A stretch of 64,000 nt of DNA from Phycisphaerae bacterium (lineage in GTDB: Bacteria > Planctomycetota > Phycisphaerae > UBA1845 > Fen-1342). The notes beneath the pieces are model-generated. The model was not told the DNA's origin and made no database searches. It was given only the letters and a program-made list of their open reading frames with translations. Positions 13,796 through 56,275 of this stretch are shown here, piece by piece. The position numbers and the translations under genes are program-made. Within the stretch, counting starts at the first letter, position 1. Each line of letters opens with the position of its first letter. The stretch covers positions 5,971 through 69,970 of the forward strand of contig JAJVHV010000030.1 of the NCBI GenBank assembly GCA_022072445.1, written 5' to 3'.

Positions 13796-14233
13796 TTAGT
13801 TGGTTCGCACCGTGATCTTCCGCGGCAGGGCCTCGGGCGACTTGGTCAGCCGCACGGTCAACACGCCGTCGCGCAGCGTCGCGTCGACGTGCTCCGGATC
13901 GACGCGGCAGGGCAGCGTCACGACGCGCGAGAACTCGCCGACGCCGCGCTCCCGTCGCTGATACGTCCGCTCGGCGCCGTCGTGCCGCTCGCGTGAGCCC
14001 TTGATGACGAGTTCGTCGCCGGCGGTGGTAATCTCCACGTCCTCGCGCCGCACGCCGGGGACTTCGGCCTCGATCATCACGCTCTGCTGATCTTCCCAGA
14101 CGTTGATGGCCGGGAACGTCGCCGCACCGCCGAGCTCCGTCGCGACCCGGAATCCGAGATCGTCGAAGAGCCGGCCCATCTGCCGCTGAAGATCGTCCAG
14201 CGGATTCCACAGCAGTGAATTCCTACGCAGCAT
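13796..14233 (-). CDS. Hsp20/alpha-crystallin family small heat-shock protein
   Basis: INVWEDQQSVMIEAEVPGVRREDVEITTAGDELVIKG...GVLTVRLTK. Confidence 0.85.
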   Translation of the reverse strand: MLRRNSLLWNPLDDLQRQMGRLFDDLGFRVATELGGAATFPAINVWEDQQSVMIEAEVPGVRREDVEITTAGDELVIKGSRERHDGAERTYQRRERGVGEFSRVVTLPCRVDPEHVDATLRDGVLTVRLTKSPEALPRKITVRTN

Positions 14234-30831: not shown

Positions 30832-30842
30832 GCTTGCTCACT

Positions 30843-30938
30843 CGCTGGCGCTTCGTGCTCGGATGGGACTCCCGTTCACGCGCTGGCGCTTCGTGCTCCG
30901 ATCGCGCAGGTTCTGCATTCTGCATTCTTCATTCTGCC
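30843..30938. repeat. intergenic repeat block: 2 x 38-bp tandem repeat followed by a (TTCTGCA)4 heptamer array
   Basis: CGCTGGCGCTTCGTGCTC occurs at 30843 and 30881; heptamers ttctgca ttctgca ttcttca ttctgcc at 30911-30938. Confidence 0.85.
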
Positions 30939-30946
30939 TTGCCGTC

Positions 30947-33055
30947 CTACGTCTTCCTGCCGCGGCCGTTATCCGCCGCCAGTGCCGTGTGCACCTCCTG
31001 TCGAATCCGCTCCGCACGCGCGTCGGCCGACGCGCCGCTCCGCGCCGGAGTCGCGCCGCCCGCGGCGGGCGGCCCAACCGACGCGACACCCAGGCGATCG
31101 CTGAGCAGCATGGTCAGCAGGGCTTCCATCACGTTGCTGCCGGCCATGCCAGACTTGCCGTCGCCCGCGCCGCCGCCGATCACCACCTTGGGCACCAGAT
31201 CGACGCCCGAGCGTTCGATCGCCTCGGCGAAACGCTCCATGACCTGCCGCGTGATCTGGAACTGCGGCCCGCCGTACGCCCGCACCTGCTCGTCGATCGC
31301 GATGGCCTGCGCCACGCCGATGCGGGCCGCCTTGTCCGCCTCGGCCTCGCCGACCGCGCGGATGCGCGTCGCTTCGCCGTCGGCCAGCGTGCGGATCTTG
31401 GCGGCTTCGGCTTCGGCGACGGCCCGCATCTGCGCCGCCTGTTGCAGGGCGCGCTGATACTCGGCCTTGCCCTGGTTTTCCTGGATGCGAATCGACACCT
31501 CGCTCTCGGTGAGGGCCTGCTGCTGGCTGGCCTTGGCCTCCGCCTCGCGCAGCTCGCGTTCCTTGACCGCGGCCTTCTCCTGCCGCGCGTAGGTCTCGAC
31601 CTGTTCCTCGGCGATTTGCCGCGTGCGGAGCTGGGTGAGGATGTTCTCGATCTTGTTGTCGCCGGCTGACGACGTCGGCGTGCCGATCAGCACCTCTTCG
31701 AGTTCGAGGTTGTAGTGCGCGAACTTCTCGCGCATCTCCTCGCCCGCGAGCTTCTGGATCAGCGCGCGATCCTGCAGGAGTTGAATGAGCGTTCGCGTCT
31801 GGCCGATGTTCTTGAAATACGCCGAGACCATCGGGTCGAGCGTCTGCTCGACCAGCCGCTTGACGTCGCCGAAGCGCTGAATGACCAGCGGCGCCTTGCG
31901 GTAGTCGATGTGCACCACGACGCTGAGCGGCAGCGACGGCTCAAAGGCGTCCTTGGTGATCAGCGAGACTTCGCGCAGGTTCTCGTCGAACTTGTGCATC
32001 CCGCTCTCGTTGCGGATCCACTTCAGGATGAAATTCGTCGTTGGCACCGGGATGACGTGCCCGGCATACGTGTTGAACGCGTATTTGCCGGGCAGCAACG
32101 CCTCGCTCCAGACGCCGCGCTGCCCCGGTTTTACCAGCTCGCCGTGCTTGTATTCGACGCCGGACAGGTCGGCGCCACGCTCGCCTGTGTACGAGACGAC
32201 CACGCCGACGTTGCCGACGTCGATGACAGTCTTGGGCAGCATCTCCACCGTCGCGAACAGCCGGTTGAGATAATACGTGCCGTCGACGAGCACCTGGAGC
32301 TGCCGGCCCCGGCTTCCGCCGGCGGCCAGGAACACCTCGATGTCCTGGAAGTTGTTGTGAAACGTCGACGGGACGTCCGGGGAATTGCCCACAACGGGGG
32401 CGATGATCTCGCCGGCCGGCAGCGCCGGCCCGTCATGAACGGTGATGACGCCGATCATGTCGTCGCTGCCGCGGATCACGACCGGTTCGAAGCCGTTGCG
32501 ATTCCCGATCTCCGCCTGCATGCTCTGAAAGACCGCCTTGTCGTCGCGCTCCAGCGGCAGGTAGTAGAGCTGATCGTCGGTAACGACCGCGAACTGCGCC
32601 AGGTTGATCGCATACGTGCCTTCGCGCAGCAACTTGCGCTGCGGCCCACGCTGCCCGCCGTCCGCCAGAAAGCCGCGCACGTCCTCGAAATTCTGCGCCT
32701 TGACGTTGCACGCCAGCGTCTGCGTCGGCGGCAGCGGGTGCCCGTCACGGGCATACACGTAGCCGATCTGCCCCTGCGGGATCGTCACCAGCGGCAGCAG
32801 ATGCACGCGATACTGAAACGGCGTCAGAAAATGCAGCCCGCCGCGCAGCACGTCCGGTTGAAAGCCGGCTTCGCCGCGCAGCGCGATCAGCCCCTGACGC
32901 ACCGAGCCGCTGTGGCTCCAGAGCCGCTCGACGATGCCGACCCGGCGGTTCGGAATGTACCGAATACCGCTTAGACCGGTGAGCAAGACCAGGACCACAG
33001 CGAGCACAATCGCGCCCACGACCATGGTCGTAACGTCGATGGCTCCGAGTAACAT
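30947..33055 (-). CDS. flotillin/SPFH (band 7) family protein
   Basis: N-terminal TM MLLGAIDVTTMVVGAIVLAVVLVLL, SPFH domain, long EA-rich coiled-coil (AEAEAAKIR...), C-terminal Gly/Ala-rich tail. AAAGGAG lies 8 nt upstream of ATG 33055. Confidence 0.85.
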   Translation of the reverse strand: MLLGAIDVTTMVVGAIVLAVVLVLLTGLSGIRYIPNRRVGIVERLWSHSGSVRQGLIALRGEAGFQPDVLRGGLHFLTPFQYRVHLLPLVTIPQGQIGYVYARDGHPLPPTQTLACNVKAQNFEDVRGFLADGGQRGPQRKLLREGTYAINLAQFAVVTDDQLYYLPLERDDKAVFQSMQAEIGNRNGFEPVVIRGSDDMIGVITVHDGPALPAGEIIAPVVGNSPDVPSTFHNNFQDIEVFLAAGGSRGRQLQVLVDGTYYLNRLFATVEMLPKTVIDVGNVGVVVSYTGERGADLSGVEYKHGELVKPGQRGVWSEALLPGKYAFNTYAGHVIPVPTTNFILKWIRNESGMHKFDENLREVSLITKDAFEPSLPLSVVVHIDYRKAPLVIQRFGDVKRLVEQTLDPMVSAYFKNIGQTRTLIQLLQDRALIQKLAGEEMREKFAHYNLELEEVLIGTPTSSAGDNKIENILTQLRTRQIAEEQVETYARQEKAAVKERELREAEAKASQQQALTESEVSIRIQENQGKAEYQRALQQAAQMRAVAEAEAAKIRTLADGEATRIRAVGEAEADKAARIGVAQAIAIDEQVRAYGGPQFQITRQVMERFAEAIERSGVDLVPKVVIGGGAGDGKSGMAGSNVMEALLTMLLSDRLGVASVGPPAAGGATPARSGASADARAERIRQEVHTALAADNGRGRKT

Positions 33056-33063
33056 GACTGGCA

Positions 33064-33070
33064 CTCCTTT
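33064..33070 (-). promoter_or_regulatory. Shine-Dalgarno AAAGGAG for the flotillin gene
   Basis: Minus strand reads gagAAAGGAGtgccagtcATG. Confidence 0.6.
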
Positions 33071-33716
33071 TCTCAAGCGTGCGAACGCGGCGACGCCCGG
33101 CCGCGCGATCCGCACCGAGGGTCTCGGCGCAGGGCTGCGCCGTCGACCGGTTCAATGCTGGTTCCATACCGCTTCGGCGCCGGGCGCGGCGCCGATCGGT
33201 AGTCGTTACGCACAATGCTCGTGCGCATGCTAATACTGCCGTCGGTGTAGGTTACGTCGAGGGAGGCGGGCTCATGGTTGCTCCAGCGGTCGCCTGCGAG
33301 GTTAGCTGACGGGCGCGCTGCGCTGATTCAGCGTCCGGCTCCGGCCGGATTAGCCCCTGCGTCGCGGGCCTTGTGCCCGCGCCGCGCTGGGTTCCCCGCT
33401 GCCAGGCCGCCTGGGGCAGCCCGACATTCGGCACAAACAGCATGTATTAGAGTAAGTATAGCACAGGTTTGGCCGACTGGCCGGCCGATAACGCGCGCAC
33501 ACGCGCTCGGTACCGTTTTCATTCGACCAGATCCCGGCAAGTATCCAGCAGATCGCGGGAATCCAACCTAACTCCGAAGACTCGCCAGGCTCGATCGGTA
33601 GAGCCATCTCACGAAAGTATCCTCTCGCGAAGCGCCGGAAGTGAAGGCCGAATCGCAGCCAGTGCCAGTAGTCGGCCACCGTGAGCATCGACTGACGCTG
33701 CCAGAATTCGCCGAAG

Positions 33717-40228: not shown

Positions 40229-42961
40229 CTACAGCGTCCGCGCCACTTCCGCGACTTCGTAAATCTCGAACACGTCGCCGATCTTCAGGTCGTCGAACCC
40301 GGCCAGCCGGATGCCGCATTCCATCCCGGCGTTGACCTCCTTCACGTCGTTCTTGAAACGCCGCAGCGACGCGATGTCTACGTTCTCGCGAACCACGCGG
40401 CTGTCGCGGACGATGCGAATCTTGTTCGTCCGAGCCACCTGACCGTCCACAACGCGGCAGCCCGCGATCGAGCCGGCCTTCGGCAGATTGAAGATCTCCA
40501 GCACCTCCACCTTGCCGCACGGCGTGATGCGGATTTCAGGCTCCAGCAGCCCCTCGAGCGCTTTCTTGATGTCGTCGATCACGTTGTAAATCACGCGATA
40601 CGAGCGGATCTCCACGCCCACCTCGTCCGCCAGACGCTGGGCTCCGTCCTCGGCCACGACACAGAACCCGATGATCAGCGCCGACGAAACCTGCGACAGC
40701 CGCACGTCCGCTTCGGTCACGGCCCCGACGCCCGCATGCAGGATGTTCAGCCGCACTTCGTCGGACGGAATCTCCCCCAACGAGCCGCGCAGTGCATCCA
40801 GCGATCCCTGAACGTCCGCCTTGATCAGAATGTTCAGCACCGGCACTTCGTCCGCCGTCGCACCGCGGAACAGCTCCTCCAGCGACATCCGCTTCGTCCC
40901 CGCCGACAGCGCCTTGTCACGCCGCTGCGACCGGACTTCCTCCGCAATCGACTTCGCCGACGCCGCACTGCTCACCTGGTACAGCATGTCCCCCGCCGCC
41001 GGAAGCTCGTCCAGTCCCGACACTTCCACCGGCGTGCCCGGACCGGCCTCCGGCAGGCGACGGCCCGCGCTGTCGTGCAGGGACCGCACGCGGCCGTATC
41101 CCGGTCCGCACACGATCGTTTGCCCTGGACGCAGGATGCCCTCGCGCACCAGCACCGTCGCCGTCACGCCCTTGCCCTCGCGCATCTGGGCTTCGATCAC
41201 CTGGCCGACGGTCGGTATCGTCGGATCGGCCTTGAGATCAAGCAGCTCGCTCAGCGTGCTCAGATGCGCGATCAGGTCGTCGATCCCGACGCCCGTCGTC
41301 GCGCTGGTCTTGATGACGTCGACTTCGCCGCCCCATTCCGAAACCGTCAGCCCTTGCTCGGCCAGTTGCCCGTACACGCGGTTGAGGTCGACGCCCGGCA
41401 GATCGATCTTGTTCAGCGCCACGATGATCGGCACCTTCGCGGCCTTCGCGTGATTGATCGCTTCAATCGTCTGCGGCATGACACCGTCGTTCGCCGCGAC
41501 CACCAGCACCACCACATCCGTCAGGTTCGCACCCCGCGCACGCATCTCCGTGAACGCCTGGTGGCCCGGCGTGTCCAGAAACGAAACGTGCCAGTCGCCG
41601 CGGTCGATCCGGTAGGCCCCGATGTGCTGCGTAATGCCGCCCGCCTCGCCCGCCGCAACGTTCGTCTTGCGGATCGCGTCCAGCAGCGACGTCTTGCCAT
41701 GGTCCACGTGCCCCAGCATCGTGACCACCGGCGGGCGCGGCTGAAGCTTGTTGCGCGCGAGAGCGGCGAACTGCTCCTCCAACGCCTCCAGCGCCGTCCG
41801 CCGCTTCAGCATCTTCACCGCGAGCCCGAACTCCATCGCCAGCAGCTCGGCCGTCTCAAAATCGATCATCTGGTTAATCGTCATCAGCCCGCCGGTGTGC
41901 TCCTGCAGCTTCGGCAGCAGCTTGACGTACGGAATGCCAATCGCCGCGCAAAAGTCGCGCAGCGTCAGCGGCGCGGTGATCTCGACCTCGGCGCGCCGCG
42001 CCGCCGGTGGCGGCGGGGGGGCCCCCTTACGCGTCGGCCGCTCGTCCAGCCGCCGATCCTTCAGCGTGTGCCCCGTCGCACTCGCCAGTCGCTCCTTGCG
42101 CTCCAGCAGGTCCTGATCTCGCCACTCACGCAGCCGCTCTGTCGCAAGTTCGACCCCGTCGTCCCGGCGCACCGGCGACCGCGCACGACGCGCTTCCTCC
42201 TCCGCGGTCGTGCCGCGACCTTCGCGCGGCTTCCGTCGCGGCGTCGTCGTTGACGTTCGGTCCGGCATCGGCGGCGGAACGCCCATCGGTCGCGGCCGCG
42301 GCGTCGGGAGCCGATCCGGAGCTTCCATCCGGATGAGCTGCGGACCCTTCAACTCCGCCGGACGCGGAACCAATTGCGGACCCGCCGGCGCAACCGGCTT
42401 CGACGGTGGTGGCGGCGGCGCTGCGACCCGACGCGGCGCAGGCGTCGCCGGCGCAACCGTCGGCGTTACCACGGGAGGTGCCGGCGGCGCTTCCGGCGCC
42501 GGAGGTGTCGGCGGAGCCACCGCCGCCGGTCGCATTGGCTCAGGAACCACTTCCAGCTCAGGCACCACCGTCACCGCAGGCGGCTCAGTGATCGTCGGGG
42601 CTGGCGCAGGTGGCAGCTCCAGCGCTGGCACTTCAACCGTTTCCGGCTCAGCGGCCAATTCAACCGGAGTCGCCGATTCCTCCTCGAAGGCCTCCGCCAC
42701 CGCCGCCCCGCCCTCGTCTCCCTTGCGGCGGCGACGCTGCTTGCGCACCTTCGACAAATCGACCGGCAAGGCCACTTCCACGGATGTCACGTCGGCGCCA
42801 ACGCTGAACCACTCGCGAATCGACTCCGCCAGGCCCGCCGAAACCACCGACATGTGGTTCTTCAGTGTGTCAATTCCCTCGGCGTCGCACTTGGCAATAA
42901 TGTCCTTGCTCGCGACCCCCAACTCCTGCGCCAGCGTATGTACCCGAAGCTTTTCCGACAC
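40229..42961 (-). CDS. infB: translation initiation factor IF-2
   Basis: IF2_N ([22 protein letters not shown]), Pro/Ala-rich linker, G domain [18 protein letters not shown]-terminal beta-barrels. Start placed at GTG 42961 with GGAGAG upstream; the ORF opens at 43060. Confidence 0.9.
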
Positions 42962-43430
42962 TCGACTCTCCGTGGCCGACACGACACCGATCGGATCCGC
43001 ATCCGAAATCGGGTGGCACTGCTCCGCGCGGAGTCCGCCACGACTCGCCGCGCGTCCCAATAATCGACGAACCGCCGGCAGGGCGCACCCTCTCCGGACG
43101 GTCCGCTACATTCGCAATAGAATACTCGCCCGCAACTCGTTTTGCCAGCACGCAAACCACCCCAGCCCCACAGATTGTTTCGCTCAGTCATGTCCGTGAA
43201 CGATCCCGAATCCGCCATTCGGCGTCCGCGCCTCACCCTCAACCAAGCCGTCGTCTTCGGTCGATTGACAGTAACGGCACTCGACCAATATCATCACGAC
43301 CCTCATTCGACCGGCTATCCCAGTGGTCCGTGCGGGCCGCATGAACCGAGTGGGATGAACGGCCTGAGTGATGATTCTCCCCCGCAACGCGCGGTTTGCG
43401 TCACGCTCGCCGCAGGAGCTTGCGCAGTCC

Positions 43431-50897: not shown

Positions 50898-51178
50898 GAC
50901 TCAGCCGTCAGGGCGGCGCCGCGACATCCGAACCCGGAGTCGATCTCGATACATCTTCGGTGATGGGTGCCGGCACTGGATCGCCGTGCTGCACAGGTCG
51001 AAGTCACGGTGGGAAGGCGTTGGCGGTCGTTGACGCGCTCCGTGCGCATGCCGACGCAACGGCCGTCGGCATGGCACCCGTGCATTCATGGGTTTGTGGA
51101 TTGGTGTATTCAAACACGCAGCGCCCTCGCTCGCTCGGCACCTTTGGTGAAGCACCATTGCGCCCCGCGCTCGCAACG

Positions 51179-54100
51179 CTACCTCACACTGAAATACCGC
51201 GCCGCGGGATGATGCGCGATCACCGCGCTGGTGCTCTGCTCCGGATCAAGCTGGTATTCGTCGCTGAGCGAAACGCCGATGCGCTGCGGCTCGAGCAACT
51301 GCATGAGCTTGGCCTGGTCTTCCAGGTTCGGGCAGGCCGGGTAGCCGAAGCTGAAGCGGCTGCCCTGGTAGCCCTGCTGAAACAGCTTCTGCCGCTCGCG
51401 GGCGTCGTCGCCGGCGATCCCAAGCTCCATCCGCACCTGCTTGTGCACGTATTCGGCCAGCGCCTCGGCGGTCTCGACGCCCAGGCCGTGCAGGAAGAGG
51501 TATTGCTGATACTCGTTGCGGGCGAACCACTCGCGGGCCACCTCGCTGACGCGCTGGCCGGCGGTCACCAGCGAAAGGGCGATCACGTCGGTCTCCCCGC
51601 TCTCGACCGGTCGCCAGAAGTCGGACAGACACCAGTGCGGCGGCTTCTGCTGCCGCGGGAAGGTGAAGCGGGCCACTTCACAGCCACGTTGCGACGGAGA
51701 CAAGGGCGAGCGAGAAGGTAGCCCGAATGAGCCACGGAGGGAGGGAGCGGCTCGATCGCTGGACAGGCCCGGAGAAGCGAGCGCAATCGGAGTCGATCCC
51801 GGCGCAGACGCCATCGACTCCAGTCCTTCCTTCCCCTTCGTGCCTCCGTGGCTTCCTGGCTTCGTGGCGCCTTCTCCTTTCGTGGCTTCGTGGCTTCGTG
51901 GCTTCGTGGCTGTGTCCCAGATGATCAGATCGTCGCCGTCGGAGTTGCAGGGCCAGTAGCCGTAGATGGCCTGCGGCCGGAGGATCGCCTCGCGCTCGCA
52001 ACGCGCGACCAGCTCGCGGTAGATCGGCCGCACGTCGCGGTCGATGTAGCGGCGGAAGTCATCGCCGGCGCGGCCGCGCTTGCGGAAGCCCCACTGCACC
52101 TGGAAGAGCATGATCTCGTTCATGTAGCCCAGAGCGGCCTTGAGCGGGATGTGCTCGAGCACGCGCGCACCCCAGAAGGGCGGCGCGGGAATGGCGTTGT
52201 CGATCGGGATTTCGGAGCGGCGGCGCGGCGGCGCGGCGGCGCGGGCGCGGTCAATCGCGCTGGCCGCGACGAGCGGGCCCTCGGCGACGGCGTCGTCATC
52301 CTCGGCGGTCTCGCCGATGGCGGCGAGGCCGAAGCGCTGCTCGGCGTCGAGGTCGAGGCGGCGCGGGGGTTGGGCGGCGGAGATCGACGCTGCTTCCAGG
52401 TCCGGGCGGTCCTTGCGTCCGAAGGAAACCCCTCCCTTACGGTCGGGGCTCGGCTGGGTGGCGGCGCTCGGCTGGGTGATTTCTCGTTCTTCCAACGCTT
52501 CGTCGCGTTGTCGCTTTTCCCCTTGGTCGTTTCGTCGCTCTGTCGCTTCGTCGCGTCGCCCCGTCGTCGCTTCGTCGCTTCGTCGCTTCGTCGCTGTGAT
52601 CTCCCCCATCAGCCGCAGACCCTCGAACGCGTCCTTCGCGTATGAGAGGCTTCCGGCGTAGAGCGGGCGCAGGTCGTTCTCGACGTAGCCGCGCGTCAGC
52701 GCGGCGCCGCCGAGGATGACCGGCACGCGGATGCCCTGCTCCTCGAGCACGAGCAGATCGTCGCGCATCACCAGCGTCGACTTCACCAGCAGGCCCGACA
52801 GCCCGATCGCGTCGGCGGCGTGCTCGCGCCAGGCGGCGATGACGTTGTTGATCGGCTGCTTGATGCCCAGGTTGAACACGCGGTAGCCGTTGTTGGTCAG
52901 AATGATGTCGACCAGGTTCTTGCCGATGTCGTGCACGTCGCCGCGGACGGTCGCCAGCACGATCCTGCCGCGCGACGTGTCGGCGGAGCGGTCCATGTGC
53001 GGCTCAAGCAGGGCGACGGCGGCTTTCATCGTCTCGGCGGACTTGAGCACGAAGGGGAGCTGCATCTGGCCCGAGCCGAAGAGGTCGCCGACGGTCTTCA
53101 TGCCGTCGAGCAGCAGGTTGTTGATGATGTCGAGCGGCGCGTAGGTCTGGAGCGCGACGGCGAGGTCGGCGTCGAGGCCGATTCTCTCGCCGTCGATGAT
53201 GCGGCGTTTGAGGCGCTCCTCGATGGGCAGGTCGGCGATCTTGACTTTCGTGCCGACTTGTTCGGTATCGGAGAAGAGGCCGATAAACCGAACCAGCGGG
53301 TCCTCATGTGGCACAGCCGCCCCCGGCTGTGAATGTGGCACAGCCGCCCCCGGCAGTGGCTGTGGCTGTGCCACATCGTAGATCAAATTCAGCGCCGCCT
53401 CCCAGCGCTCGTCGCTGATCTGATTGCGCGGCAGGATCTTGCTCGAATGCACGATCGCCGCGGTCAGGCCGCGCTGCCGGGCCTCGTGCAGGAACACAGA
53501 ATTGAGGACCGCGCGGGCGGCGGGGACAAGGCCGAAGCTGACGTTGCTGACGCCCAGGATCGACTGGCAGCGCGGGAAGCGCGTCATCACCGCTTCGATG
53601 CCGTCGAGCGTCTCGAGCGCCAGCCGCCGATCGGCCTCGTTGCCGGTCGTGATCGGGAATGTCAGGCAATCGAAGAAGATGTCCTCTTCGGCGACGCCGT
53701 ACTTGCGCGTGAGCAGGTCGTGAATGCGCGTGGCGATTTCGAGCTTGCGCTGCGCGGTCTTGGCCATGCTCTCGATCGGGTCTTCGTCGATCGTGAGCGC
53801 GACGACGGCGGCGCCGTATTGCCGCAGCAGCCGCGCGACGCGGGCCATCTTGACTTCGCCGTCCTCGAGGTTGACGGAGTTGACGATGCACTTGCCGCCG
53901 ATGAGCTTCAGGCCGGCTTCGATCACCTCGGGCTCGGTGCTGTCGAGCATGATGGGGACGTTGACGTCGACGGCGTAGCGGTCGGCGACGCGCGTCATGT
54001 CGGCGACGCCGTCGCGCCCGACGTAGTCGACGCACAGGTCGAGGACGTGCGCGCCTTCCTTCACCTGCTCGACGCCCACCTGCACCAGGCCCTCGATGTC

Positions 54101-55363
54101 GCCTTCCGCGAGCAGGCGTTTGAACTGCCGGCTGCCGTTGGTGTTGCTGCGCTCGCCGACGATCAGAAAGCTGTTGTCCTGGCGGTAGGGCATGGCCTGG
54201 TAAAGGCTGCTGCACGCCGCCTCACGAGATCGGCTCGGCGATGGGCCTAATGCAGAATGAAGAATGCAGAATGCAGAAGCGTCCTCCGTCGTCGAGCCGG
54301 GCTCAGGTTTCGTCGCCGGTGCGGGCGGATGCTCGGCGGACCCAGAAAGGCCGATTGCAGAGGCATCCGGCGACGAAGAACCGGTTTCTGCATTCCGCGT
54401 TCTGCATTCTGCATTGCTTTCTGCATTGCCGTGGAATCCGATCGCCTCCACCACCGCGCGCAGATGCGCCGGCGTCGTGCCGCAGCAGCCGCCGACGATC
54501 CGCACGCCGTCAACGTCGACGAACTCCTTCAGCCAGCGGGCCAGCTCGGCCGGCGCGAGCGGGAAGTGCGTACGCCCGCTGACGAGCTGCGGCAGGCCGG
54601 CGTTCGGCATCACGCTGATCGGACGCGTGCTGTTCCGCGCCAGATACCGCACGTGCTCGCTCATCTCCTGCGGCCCGGTGGCGCAGTTCAACCCGATTAC
54701 GTCGACTTCCGGATACGCCTCGATCGCCACCAGCGCGGCGGCGACGTCGGTGCCCACCAGCATCGTGCCGGTGGTCTCCATGGTTACCTGCACCATGAGC
54801 GGCAAGCGCTTGCCGGTTTTCTCGAACGCCGACAGCACGGCCCAGATCACGGCCTTGGCGTGCAGGATGTCCTGACACGTCTCGATCAGCATCGCGTCGC
54901 AGCCGCCGTCGATCAGCCCGCGGGCCTGCTCGCCGTAGCTCTCGAGCAGCCCGTCGTACGAAATCTGCCGCAGCGTCGGCAGCTTCGTCCCCGGACCGAG
55001 CGAGCCGACGACGAAGCGCGGCCGCGGCAGCGTCGAAAACGCCTCGCACGCCCGCCGCGCGATCTTCGCCGCCGCGACGTTGATCTCGTAGCAGCGGTCA
55101 GCCAGGCCGAACTCGGCCAGCACGTGCCGCATGCCGCCGAAGGTGTTGGTTTCGACCGCGTCGCAGCCGACGTCGAGAAAGCTGCGGTGAATTTGCTCGA
55201 CGGCGTCGGGGCGGGTGAGGTTCAGGACTTCGCAGCAGTTTTCGAGGCCGTTGTAGTCGCTCAGCGGCAGATCGAGCGCGTGGATGCTGGTGCCCATGGC
55301 GCCGTCGAGAAACACCACGCGCCGCCCGACGAGTTCCAGAAACGCCGATTCCGATCCGCGCAA
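51179..55363 (-). CDS. metH: cobalamin-dependent methionine synthase, 1394 aa with several in-frame low-complexity/repeat insertions
   Basis: All four modules recognisable: homocysteine-binding (GAMGTSI...GGCCGTTPAH), pterin-binding, B12-binding (DVHDIGKN) and AdoMet activation (FPRQ). About 160 aa longer than typical because of repeat insertions. Confidence 0.9.
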   Translation of the reverse strand: MRGSESAFLELVGRRVVFLDGAMGTSIHALDLPLSDYNGLENCCEVLNLTRPDAVEQIHRSFLDVGCDAVETNTFGGMRHVLAEFGLADRCYEINVAAAKIARRACEAFSTLPRPRFVVGSLGPGTKLPTLRQISYDGLLESYGEQARGLIDGGCDAMLIETCQDILHAKAVIWAVLSAFEKTGKRLPLMVQVTMETTGTMLVGTDVAAALVAIEAYPEVDVIGLNCATGPQEMSEHVRYLARNSTRPISVMPNAGLPQLVSGRTHFPLAPAELARWLKEFVDVDGVRIVGGCCGTTPAHLRAVVEAIGFHGNAESNAECRTRNAETGSSSPDASAIGLSGSAEHPPAPATKPEPGSTTEDASAFCILHSALGPSPSRSREAACSSLYQAMPYRQDNSFLIVGERSNTNGSRQFKRLLAEGDIEGLVQVGVEQVKEGAHVLDLCVDYVGRDGVADMTRVADRYAVDVNVPIMLDSTEPEVIEAGLKLIGGKCIVNSVNLEDGEVKMARVARLLRQYGAAVVALTIDEDPIESMAKTAQRKLEIATRIHDLLTRKYGVAEEDIFFDCLTFPITTGNEADRRLALETLDGIEAVMTRFPRCQSILGVSNVSFGLVPAARAVLNSVFLHEARQRGLTAAIVHSSKILPRNQISDERWEAALNLIYDVAQPQPLPGAAVPHSQPGAAVPHEDPLVRFIGLFSDTEQVGTKVKIADLPIEERLKRRIIDGERIGLDADLAVALQTYAPLDIINNLLLDGMKTVGDLFGSGQMQLPFVLKSAETMKAAVALLEPHMDRSADTSRGRIVLATVRGDVHDIGKNLVDIILTNNGYRVFNLGIKQPINNVIAAWREHAADAIGLSGLLVKSTLVMRDDLLVLEEQGIRVPVILGGAALTRGYVENDLRPLYAGSLSYAKDAFEGLRLMGEITATKRRSDEATTGRRDEATERRNDQGEKRQRDEALEEREITQPSAATQPSPDRKGGVSFGRKDRPDLEAASISAAQPPRRLDLDAEQRFGLAAIGETAEDDDAVAEGPLVAASAIDRARAAAPPRRRSEIPIDNAIPAPPFWGARVLEHIPLKAALGYMNEIMLFQVQWGFRKRGRAGDDFRRYIDRDVRPIYRELVARCEREAILRPQAIYGYWPCNSDGDDLIIWDTATKPRSHEATKGEGATKPGSHGGTKGKEGLESMASAPGSTPIALASPGLSSDRAAPSLRGSFGLPSRSPLSPSQRGCEVARFTFPRQQKPPHWCLSDFWRPVESGETDVIALSLVTAGQRVSEVAREWFARNEYQQYLFLHGLGVETAEALAEYVHKQVRMELGIAGDDARERQKLFQQGYQGSRFSFGYPACPNLEDQAKLMQLLEPQRIGVSLSDEYQLDPEQSTSAVIAHHPAARYFSVR
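53305..53375. repeat. 27-bp-period tandem duplication plus inverted partial copy inside metH
   Basis: ATGTGGCACAGCCGCCCCCGGC occurs twice (53305, 53332), then GGCTGTGCCACAT inverted at 53363; encodes PGAAVPHSQ/PGAAVPHED in MetH. Confidence 0.85.
54251..54427. repeat. heptamer-array-bounded inverted-repeat mini-element (MITE-like) inserted in frame in metH
   Basis: (TGCAGAA)4 at 54251-54278 and (TTCTGCA)n at 54386-54427 in inverted orientation, about 107 bp apart; 177 bp = 59 codons without stops in the metH frame. Confidence 0.8.
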
Positions 55364-55384
55364 CGCGACTTCCTCTGTCTGCTG

Positions 55385-55510
55385 GCCGGTGAGATTCTAT
55401 GCGAACGCCGCCCCTGCTGCCCCCTTTGACCCTTCAACCCTTCGACCCCCTGGCCCCTCGCCCCGTGAGCCCCTCGGCCCCCTCGGCCCCCTCGACCTCT
55501 CGGCCCCTTC
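55385..55510. repeat. C-rich low-complexity repeat tract in the metH/aldolase divergent intergenic region
   Basis: Repeated CCCCTCGGCC/CCCTTCGACC units. Confidence 0.6.
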
Positions 55511-55537
55511 GATTTGCTTTCCCCGCGAATCTTCATC

Positions 55538-56275
55538 ATGCTGTATCCGGAGCCGAGCACCTTGGCATTGAACGAACAGACCCTGCGCGAACAGATCTGC
55601 GATGTCGGCCGGCGAATTTACGCCCGCGGATTCGCCGCCGGCAACGACGGAAACATCTCGCACCGCCTCGGGCCGGATCGCGTCCTCTGTACGCCGACGC
55701 TGGTCAGCAAGGGCGCCATGAGGCCCGACGACCTCTGCATCGTCGACATGGAAGGTCGTCAGCTCGCCGGCACACTCAAGCGCACCAGCGAAATCATGCT
55801 CCATCTCGAAGTCCTCCGCGCCGACGCCTCCGTCCAGTCCGTCGTCCATTGCCATCCGCCGCACGCCACCGCCTTCGGCGTCGCGCACGAGCCGATCCCC
55901 TCGTGCATCCTGCCGGAGGTCGAGATTTTTCTGGGCGTTGTGCCGCAGGCCGAATATCAGACCCCCGGCGGCCGCGACTTCGCGGCGACCGTGCGGCCGT
56001 TTCTCGGACGGGCCAACACGGTGGTGCTCAGCAATCACGGCACGGTCAGTTGGGGTCCCACGCTCGAACAAGCTTATTGGAACACCGAAATCCTCGACGC
56101 CTACTGCCGCATCCTGATCCTGGCGCGGCTGCTGGGCCGGGTGGAACGCATTCCGGACGAAAAGGTCCTCGAGCTCCTGAAGCTGCGCGAGAAATTCGGC
56201 GCACCGGCAGACCCGCGCCTGGTCGAGGGTGCACCGATGCGGGTCAACGAGACGTTCGGGCGTCCGCCCGAATAG
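55538..56275 (+). CDS. class II aldolase/adducin family protein (fuculose-phosphate aldolase or MtnB-like)
   Basis: GNDGNISHR...HCHPPHATAF...LSNHGTVSWG metal-binding His pattern. Confidence 0.8.
   Translation: MLYPEPSTLALNEQTLREQICDVGRRIYARGFAAGNDGNISHRLGPDRVLCTPTLVSKGAMRPDDLCIVDMEGRQLAGTLKRTSEIMLHLEVLRADASVQSVVHCHPPHATAFGVAHEPIPSCILPEVEIFLGVVPQAEYQTPGGRDFAATVRPFLGRANTVVLSNHGTVSWGPTLEQAYWNTEILDAYCRILILARLLGRVERIPDEKVLELLKLREKFGAPADPRLVEGAPMRVNETFGRPPE

Follow-up and report, generated by a model that had tools for sequence, protein, structure and literature searches.

In-frame repeat elements at four structurally permissive sites of a Phycisphaerae metH gene: probable colonisation by dispersed, intergenic-type sequences

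The metH gene described here lies at 51179–55363 on the minus strand of a 64-kb stretch of DNA from a Phycisphaerae bacterium (64,000 nucleotides, hereafter the window), and encodes the cobalamin-dependent methionine synthase MetH. Its uninterrupted open reading frame (ORF) of 1394 aa contains five domains, and the Pfam families S-methyl_trans, Pterin_bind, B12-binding_2, B12-binding, and Met_synt_B12 (PF02574, PF00809, PF02607, PF02310, and PF02965) are all matched in canonical order and far above the cut-offs. The homocysteine (Hcy)-binding, folate (Fol)-binding, cap, cobalamin (Cob)-binding, and S-adenosylmethionine (AdoMet) activation (Act) modules of MetH thus all occur in the expected order. 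The product aligns in four segments with the full-length Thermus MetH structures 8g3h and 8ssc (E=0). It is 100% identical to a protein encoded on a 207-kb contig of a Phycisphaerae metagenome-assembled genome (MAG), and its next-best relatives are just 60–70% identical (BLASTP). The Zn-ligand Cys, the GDVHDIGKN cobalamin motif, and the RxxxGY motif are present and, in an alignment of 120 relatives, invariant or nearly so. The catalytic and ligand residues are C227, C293/C294, D809-H811-G814 (within GDVHDIGKN), R1336, G1340, and Y1341, whose roles (Zn triad, DxHxxG cobalamin motif, RxxxGY AdoMet motif) we take to be those assigned in E. coli MetH. Since the five domains and the catalytic motifs are all present, the gene looks functional, as judged from its sequence. 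The public record labels it “Glutamate mutase sigma subunit”, and labels the IF-2 gene at 40229–43060 “Elongation factor 4”; both names look like annotation errors.

The metH product exceeds the median length of the 120 relatives by +189 aa, distributed over four places termed S1 (+60), S2 (+19), S3 (+47), and S4 (+64), all read with metH on the minus strand. In the alignment to the Thermus structures, the extra residues map to four linker or loop places: aa ~311–382 in the Hcy–Fol linker (S1), aa 669–687 in the Fol–Cap linker (S2), aa ~929–1040 in the Cob–Act linker (S3), and aa ~1151–1222 in the activation domain, directly before RFTFPRQ (S4). Tandem arrays were located with Tandem Repeats Finder (TRF), and folds were scored as z against dinucleotide shuffles. 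The repeat motifs each have 8 matches in the window against 0.1–0.3 expected from shuffles, and a 21-mer of the S2 unit has 2 matches against 0 expected. These results are in line with much of the original prediction, which was made from the DNA letters and held that metH carries at least four separate in-frame repeat expansions, one of them inside the activation domain. All four lie at the positions predicted for them in an otherwise intact MetH, the activation-domain position is borne out by the structural alignment, and the peptides quoted match the ORF translation. The proposed excess of ~160 aa is about right, and “at least four” holds, with further small repeats at 52444–52478 in S3 (18 nt x1.9) and at 52213–52244.

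S1 (54249–54427, aa ~313–372) forms a hairpin element in the Hcy–Fol linker and encodes NAESNAECRTRNAE...SAFCILHSAL. TRF reports AATGCAG x4.3 at 54249–54278 and TTCTGCA x6.3 at 54386–54427. The two arrays are inverted repeats of each other, a relationship that the original prediction overlooked. Each arm comprises about four GAATGCA heptamers (54249–54278 and 54386–54415/27), and the arms are 90% complementary over 30 nt and surround a 107-nt spacer. The RNA fold of 54243–54432 reaches –88.3 kcal/mol (z = –5.97), with 0 of 200 shuffles as good. Inside the spacer, at 54290–54385, an inner stem GGTTCTTCGTCGCCGG / CCGGCGACGAAACC is built on the CTTCGTCG/CGACGAAG octamer motif, and here one element type may be nested inside another.

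The S1 arm recurs on the plus strand at 30911–30937 (TTCTGCA TTCTGCA TTCTTCA TTCTGC), 23 kb from metH, in the spacer between a Band_7 gene and a 123-aa zinc-ribbon gene. This intergenic copy is the reverse complement of 54252–54278 at 27/27 nt, the variant unit TTCTTCA included. A single register, (TTCTGCA)2-TTCT[T/G]CA-TTCTGCA-TT, fits five arms, namely both arms of this metH, the intergenic copy, and the pair in the S1 insert of the P0012 metH, which has just 73% nucleotide identity to the present gene; the variant unit is common to three of the five. Because length, register, and variant unit are kept at unlinked loci and in another genome, the S1 arm is not a free-running slippage tract. 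A closer relative (L209, IF-2 86% identical in aa), whose contig ends 1.9 kb short of the expected metH and serves for this comparison only, has no S1-type arm in the syntenic spacer. Arm copies therefore appear to be gained or lost on short time scales. The spacer in the window (30832–30946) is itself a mosaic in which the heptamer arm is accompanied by GAGCACGAAGCGCCAGCG, a sequence with the ACGAAG octamer core, in two direct copies; in L209 a plain terminator-like hairpin takes the place of the mosaic. Beyond these genomes, the peptides NAECRMQ and SAFCILH occur in 231 database ORFs of several phyla, most of them short spurious ORFs, and both arms stand in hairpin order in 25 of the top 120. 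In five database proteins (P0126, P0136, P0152, P0203, and P0220) the whole module of NAECRMQ arm, spacer, and SAFCILH arm is present in tandem copies with the spacers repeated, so the hairpin element itself can be arrayed.

S2 (53306–53375, aa ~669–687) occupies the Fol–Cap linker and consists of a 27-nt unit x2.3 followed by a partial inverted copy, encoding PGAAVPHSQ/PGAAVPHED. TRF places the unit at 53306–53366 with 91% matches. The 27-bp tandem duplication of the original prediction is real: it shows as a 49-nt perfect periodic run, and the partial inverted copy extending to ~53375 is visible in the fold (–46.8 kcal/mol, z = –5.13). The unit is a palindrome, GTGG-CACAGCCG-CCCC-CGGCTGTG. 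With the 4-nt loop left free, the motif is found in at least 120 metagenome stretches; among the matches listed, the loops CCCT (54) and CCCC (32) occur, and the copies often form inverted pairs 12–100 nt apart and often directly follow stop codons. In the P0012 genome the palindrome is intergenic (L081, at 5756), and in P0002 it is present at the same metH site; in the window it has copies in metH only. As a short imperfect palindrome with a tetranucleotide tag at one end, S2 agrees with the description of GTAG/GTGG-tagged repetitive extragenic palindromes (REPs; 20–40 nt), and on the letters of the DNA it fits the REP definition by tag and palindrome, and probably by dispersal. As the perfect periodic run is clean, the local 27-bp duplication would have come after the insertion of S2.

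S3 and S4 contain octamer arrays. At the start of the Cob–Act linker, the S3a array (52496–52595, aa ~923–956) consists of CGCTTCGT x12.5 (TRF), which reads CGACGAAG on the sense strand and encodes TKRRSDEATTGRRDEATERRNDQGEKRQRDEA; the array is degenerate, with a longest perfect run of 4.0 units. RRSDEATK arrays are also found in unrelated database ORFs. The second component, S3b (52427–52453), is preceded by the 18-nt repeat and is a dispersed 27-nt element, CCGAGCCCCGACCGTAAGGGAGGGGTT, encoding ..PSPDRKGGV... An identical 27-mer lies in L081 at ~13933–13959, in intergenic DNA just 3' of the metH stop of that genome, and related copies are present in L083 and L116. The Cob–Act linker is generally long in this clade (median ~92 aa between anchors). 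Within it, a nearly invariant EQRFGL motif (Q1009, R1010, and G1012; aa ~1005–1014, window ~52320–52350) suggests a conserved interaction within the so-called linker.

S4 (51679–51914, aa ~1151–1228) is located within the activation domain. Its octamer array at 51836–51911, CTTCGTGG x9.2 (TRF), reads CCACGAAG on the sense strand and has a decayed inverted partner at 51679–51750. Two inverted pairs, one of 24 nt (79%) and one of 21 nt (81%), connect the array with this partner, which lies 80–190 nt downstream, and S4 looks like an old hairpin. In an AlphaFold2 model of aa 1041–1394 (49 sequences), the mean predicted local distance difference test score (pLDDT) is 80.8, with values mostly above 90 outside the S4 loop. 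Model residues 117–172, which correspond to S4, have pLDDT below 50 and lack secondary structure, and they are placed between strands E105–109 and E189–194. Because this low-confidence segment sits between confident strands, S4 is predicted by the model to be an unstructured loop that leaves the activation-domain fold intact. A search of 51100–55600 against Rfam gave no match at E up to 1.

The original prediction regarded these tracts as slippage-prone and as a possible source of phase or length variation. An origin of each tract by local slippage or tandem duplication, which would make MetH hypermutable, draws on several features: the octamer arrays are long (9–12 units), S2 contains its clean 49-nt perfect duplication, and heptameric simple sequence repeats (SSRs) are reported to be over-represented in bacteria, possibly via slippage (PMC4692102). 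Moreover, because 7- and 8-nt units are not multiples of three, the loss of one unit would truncate MetH at aa 370, 973, or 1226, whereas three-unit changes, or one 27-nt copy, keep the frame. The sequences themselves nevertheless make a local origin improbable. The S1 heptamer arm is a discrete 30-nt sequence in a fixed register that also occurs, with its variant unit, at an unlinked intergenic site and in the metH of another genome; the S2 unit is a widely dispersed REP-like palindrome; the 27-nt element of S3 has an identical intergenic counterpart in L081; and relatives bear unrelated heptamers or octamers at the same metH sites. In addition, slippage does not produce an inverted-arm architecture. 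“Slippage-prone” is itself a weak description, as the arrays are degenerate (72–91% matches) and their longest perfect runs are 2.3–4.1 units. A contingency locus has a long perfect tract of a unit not divisible by three, and the tracts of metH are not of this kind. Consistently, in P0060 and P0054, the one clearly orthologous pair (86% nucleotide identity), the S1 inserts share spacer and arms and differ by substitutions, with no change in unit number. Phase variation of metH is thus unlikely. No second genome of the species was found: an exact 29-nt S1 flank had no match among metagenome contigs, and the protein cluster is single-member.

The comparison with relatives covered the 120 MetH proteins, with orthologue DNA fetched one protein at a time; in a genome-collection scan with MetH, Phycisphaerae were few among the matches listed, most of which came from Actinomycetota, Cyanobacteria, and other phyla. 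The four sites hold inserts in other Phycisphaerae MetH proteins too, built of different units. Their insert peptides include SSELRVAS.../...ATRYSLLA (from GAGTAGC), KSEVRSQ.../...TSDFLLL (from GAAGTCA), RRHEGTKA and SDEATKRR (from octamers), and GDRGSGI (from GGGGATC). The DNA of P0012, P0024, P0015, P0002, P0060, P0054, P0003, and P0006 shows every S1 insert to be a long hairpin formed by inverted arrays of heptamers of the GAATGCA, GAGTAGC, or GAAGTCA type. The S2–S4 inserts of orthologues include further octamer or heptamer hairpins; in the P0002 metH, S4 in the activation domain holds a near-perfect in-frame hairpin of inverted GGGGATC-type heptamers (L084, 13512–13588). The entry points of all S1 inserts fall in a stretch of about five codons that follows ...AVVEAL(R/G). 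The S1 insert is absent in 95 of the 120 proteins, which have a basal linker of 17–19 aa, and its distribution on the neighbour-joining tree is patchy, with insert-bearing proteins having insert-free sisters. The unit families are discordant with the tree: for instance, P0002 shares GAAGTCA with P0060/P0054, and P0001 shares GAATGCA with P0012. Stop-free units were considered as a signature of genic arrays and rejected, since ~70% of random GC-rich 7/8-mers are also stop-free; the genic units GAGTAGC and GAAGTCA do contain stops, which are avoided by interrupting the array.

The relatives also bear on a possible mis-assembly or chimeric MAG contig. The source is a single MAG with no second copy of the species found, which leaves room for an artefact. 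However, the contig is 207 kb long, the four independent inserts keep the frame and lack stop codons, and inserts of this kind occupy these sites in independent assemblies (NCBI, JGI, ENA, and Logan) and in the isolate genome RAS1 as well. With the reading frame preserved four times and like inserts recurring in independently assembled relatives, an artefact is extremely improbable.

Together, these observations favour the reading that metH is functional and has probably acquired dispersed, intergenic-type repeat elements in frame at four structurally permissive places, namely the Hcy–Fol, Fol–Cap, and Cob–Act linkers and one β-hairpin loop of the activation domain. This colonisation mostly replaces the slippage and phase-variation reading. 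At least three classes of element are present. The first is a hairpin in which four GAATGCA heptamers, as a fixed block, make up each arm (S1), the second a GTGG-tagged REP-type palindrome that was later duplicated in tandem (S2), and the third comprises NNACGAAG-type octamer arrays (S3 and S4), one with a decayed inverted partner, in addition to the 27-nt GACCGTAAGGGAG element of S3. Elements of these classes, which normally reside between genes, would have landed in metH, and in an essential enzyme only those insertions would survive that keep the frame, bring no stop codon, and fall in tolerant, flexible surface segments. The four sites may accordingly act as intergenic-like “safe havens”, in which the elements are translated as disordered spacer peptides. 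The insertions would be neutral for the enzyme, and local slippage or duplication would have modified the elements only after insertion. For the REP-type elements, insertion may have been mediated by REP-associated tyrosine transposases (RAYTs), which are thought to move REPs (PMC3733652).

The density of period-7/8 arrays agrees with this picture: it is 0.74/kb in metH, roughly the expected intergenic density, and about nine times that of the flanking, mostly coding DNA (0.08/kb), in a comparison biased by the choice of its nine loci for having inserts. Likewise, exact 6-aa words of these unit families occur in 12/120 MetH proteins and, despite the long disordered N-terminal region of IF-2, in 0/120 IF-2 proteins of the same clade, a control that is suggestive only, since the word list was derived from the MetH arrays. 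These two limits weigh against colonisation, as do several results on the elements themselves. Nearly all copies in the window sit in metH, with one intergenic arm only. No transposase was identified in the 64 kb, where no search aimed at one was made. S3 was rejected as a hairpin, its fold being no better than shuffles (z = –0.36), and the S4 fold is weak (z = –1.49). Furthermore, S1 has inverted arms, and no duplication was seen at its junctions between the filled site and the empty site of P0005. This is a weak test, as P0005 proved unsuitable as a closely related empty site: at just 71% nucleotide identity the junctions are visible, but target-site duplications are poorly judged.

Selection for a function of the inserts would offer another explanation, either as mRNA hairpins at domain borders (ribosome pausing, or processing by RNase III or other enzymes) or as linkers that tune domain motions. 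In its favour, all four inserts are in loops or at domain borders, insertions at the same few codons recur in divergent lineages, and array peptides are found in MetH and absent from the IF-2 controls. Moreover, P0006, P0003, and P0015 keep near-perfect S1 hairpins, while third codon positions are just ~60% identical between the genes; recent independent insertion, arm-to-arm correction, or selection could each account for this. On the other hand, selection is not needed for perfect arms, as template-switch repair of quasi-palindromes can also maintain them. The 95 orthologues that lack an S1 insert, close sisters that differ, and units and spacers that are unrelated between lineages also argue against a selected function. 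In P0054 one arm has accumulated uncompensated substitutions (–52.9 kcal/mol, against –74.8 kcal/mol in P0060), S3 and S4 of the present metH no longer fold better than shuffles, and no Rfam family is matched. We regard a selected function as doubtful.

A further proposal concerns the array-armed hairpins in particular. S1- and S4-type elements might constitute an undescribed family of ORF-less hairpins, with arms that are fixed blocks of about four 7- or 8-nt units, which may insert in a structure- or site-directed manner or, alternatively, persist at MetH domain boundaries through an action on the mRNA. Directed insertion would explain why different unit families, across Phycisphaerae, hit the same ~5-codon spot in the Hcy–Fol linker, and the same spots in the other linkers, independently at least six to eight times. 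To our knowledge, no mover of array-armed hairpins is known, and we consider the proposal rather unlikely. A relationship of such hairpins to the inverted arrays on either side of TIGR02436 intervening-sequence (IVS) protein genes, described below, is also conceivable.

Two further features were observed outside the metH coding region. Between metH and the divergently oriented class-II aldolase/adducin-like gene (55514–56275), the intergenic DNA contains about nine G-rich 9-nt units, GCCGAGGGG on the metH sense strand, at 55438–55511. This array could be a promoter or 5'-untranslated-region element, or could be prone to G-quadruplex formation. In addition, a c-di-AMP riboswitch (RF00379, 42.4 bits, above the gathering score) is found on the minus strand at 33276–33443, directly upstream of the Band_7/SPFH gene (30947–33115).

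If colonisation by dispersed elements is correct, the low-complexity stretches of MetH would be translated selfish or dispersed DNA in tolerant linkers, and would not mean that metH is degenerating or phase-variable. The inserts would then mark where MetH tolerates 20–70 extra residues, one loop within the activation domain included. The repeated use of the same sites by different families raises the question of whether the elements choose their targets or selection alone is responsible. For annotation, such elements would explain many spurious “hypothetical proteins” composed of NAECRMQ, SAFCILH, or RRHEGTKA-type repeats. Hairpins with arms of fixed heptamer or octamer blocks, in frame in an essential enzyme, appear not to have been described before; the same appears true of different unit families recurring at the same codon-scale sites across a bacterial class. 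A literature search on heptanucleotide repeats in Planctomycetes and on repeats around TIGR02436 genes found nothing specific.

Several known systems resemble parts of this arrangement. Phase-variable SSR loci likewise have a unit not divisible by three inside an ORF, and a change of unit number switches the protein off; in metH, however, the tracts are short and degenerate, and the gene encodes a housekeeping enzyme. A further parallel is offered by genes for the TIGR02436/PF05635 “23S rRNA intervening-sequence protein”. In L083 (4955–5473), such a four-helix-bundle gene lies between 25-nt inverted (GTGGGAAR)n arrays that are 92% complementary and 469 nt apart, and the (GTGGGAAR) octamer family is also found in frame in the metH of L083. 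Two database proteins, P0173 and P0207, are products of TIGR02436 genes preceded by GAATGCA arrays. The metH elements differ in carrying no ORF, and the three cases are an association, not a demonstrated derivation.

The heptanucleotide arrays of cyanobacteria (short tandemly repeated repetitive sequences, STRRs) and the GGGNATC arrays of Xanthomonas and Nostoc are similar in their dispersed 7-nt units, a preferred number of about four, and an occasional arrangement as inverted stem-loop pairs. Like STRRs, the metH heptamers are joined head to tail and present at many loci, as seen by TRF, in the intergenic copy, and in the 231 database ORFs. GGGGATC-type units, which also build the hairpin in S4 of P0002, belong to the family whose intergenic repeats in Xanthomonas and Nostoc have been studied for G-quadruplex formation. 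The tandem heptamer arrays of these two genera are intergenic, often of four units, sometimes inverted, and reportedly under-represented in coding regions (PMC4692102). In contrast, the metH arrays are in frame in an essential gene, do not form G-quadruplexes, and have a fixed arm with a conserved variant unit.

S2 resembles the GTAG/GTGG-tagged REPs in its GTGG tag, 8-bp stem, and 4-nt loop, and, in metagenomes, in being dispersed, often in inverted pairs. In most GTAG-20 elements of Opitutus terrae the tag is GTGG (Di Nocera et al. 2013, PMC3733652). REP families have been described in Planctomycetes, and intragenic REPs are most numerous in O. terrae, a bacterium of the Planctomycetes–Verrucomicrobia–Chlamydiae (PVC) group, usually as dimers coding for 20–30 aa (PMC3733652). 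The recurrence of different families at one site also has a precedent, as the REPs found near one and the same position of recB differ between two Xanthomonas species (PMC3733652). As a difference, metH is outside the repair and replication genes highlighted for REPs.

The closest parallel in behaviour is provided by the Rickettsia palindromic elements (RPEs), which are inserted in frame in Rickettsia genes (PMC3733652). These short palindromic repeats reside in genes of functional proteins, are translated as surface peptides, and may be present several per gene. S1 and S2 of metH are likewise strong hairpins within an intact ORF, in line with in-frame insertion into still-functional genes. 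The arms of S1 and S4, however, are made of tandem 7- and 8-nt units, whereas an RPE is a unique palindrome, and a single metH holds several unrelated classes of element in another phylum. Because the phylum differs, we claim for the metH elements that they work like RPEs, not that they belong to that family. RPEs and intragenic REPs are known examples of palindromic repeats that colonise genes in frame; the observations on metH would add Phycisphaerae, and hairpins of tandem heptamers and octamers, to them.

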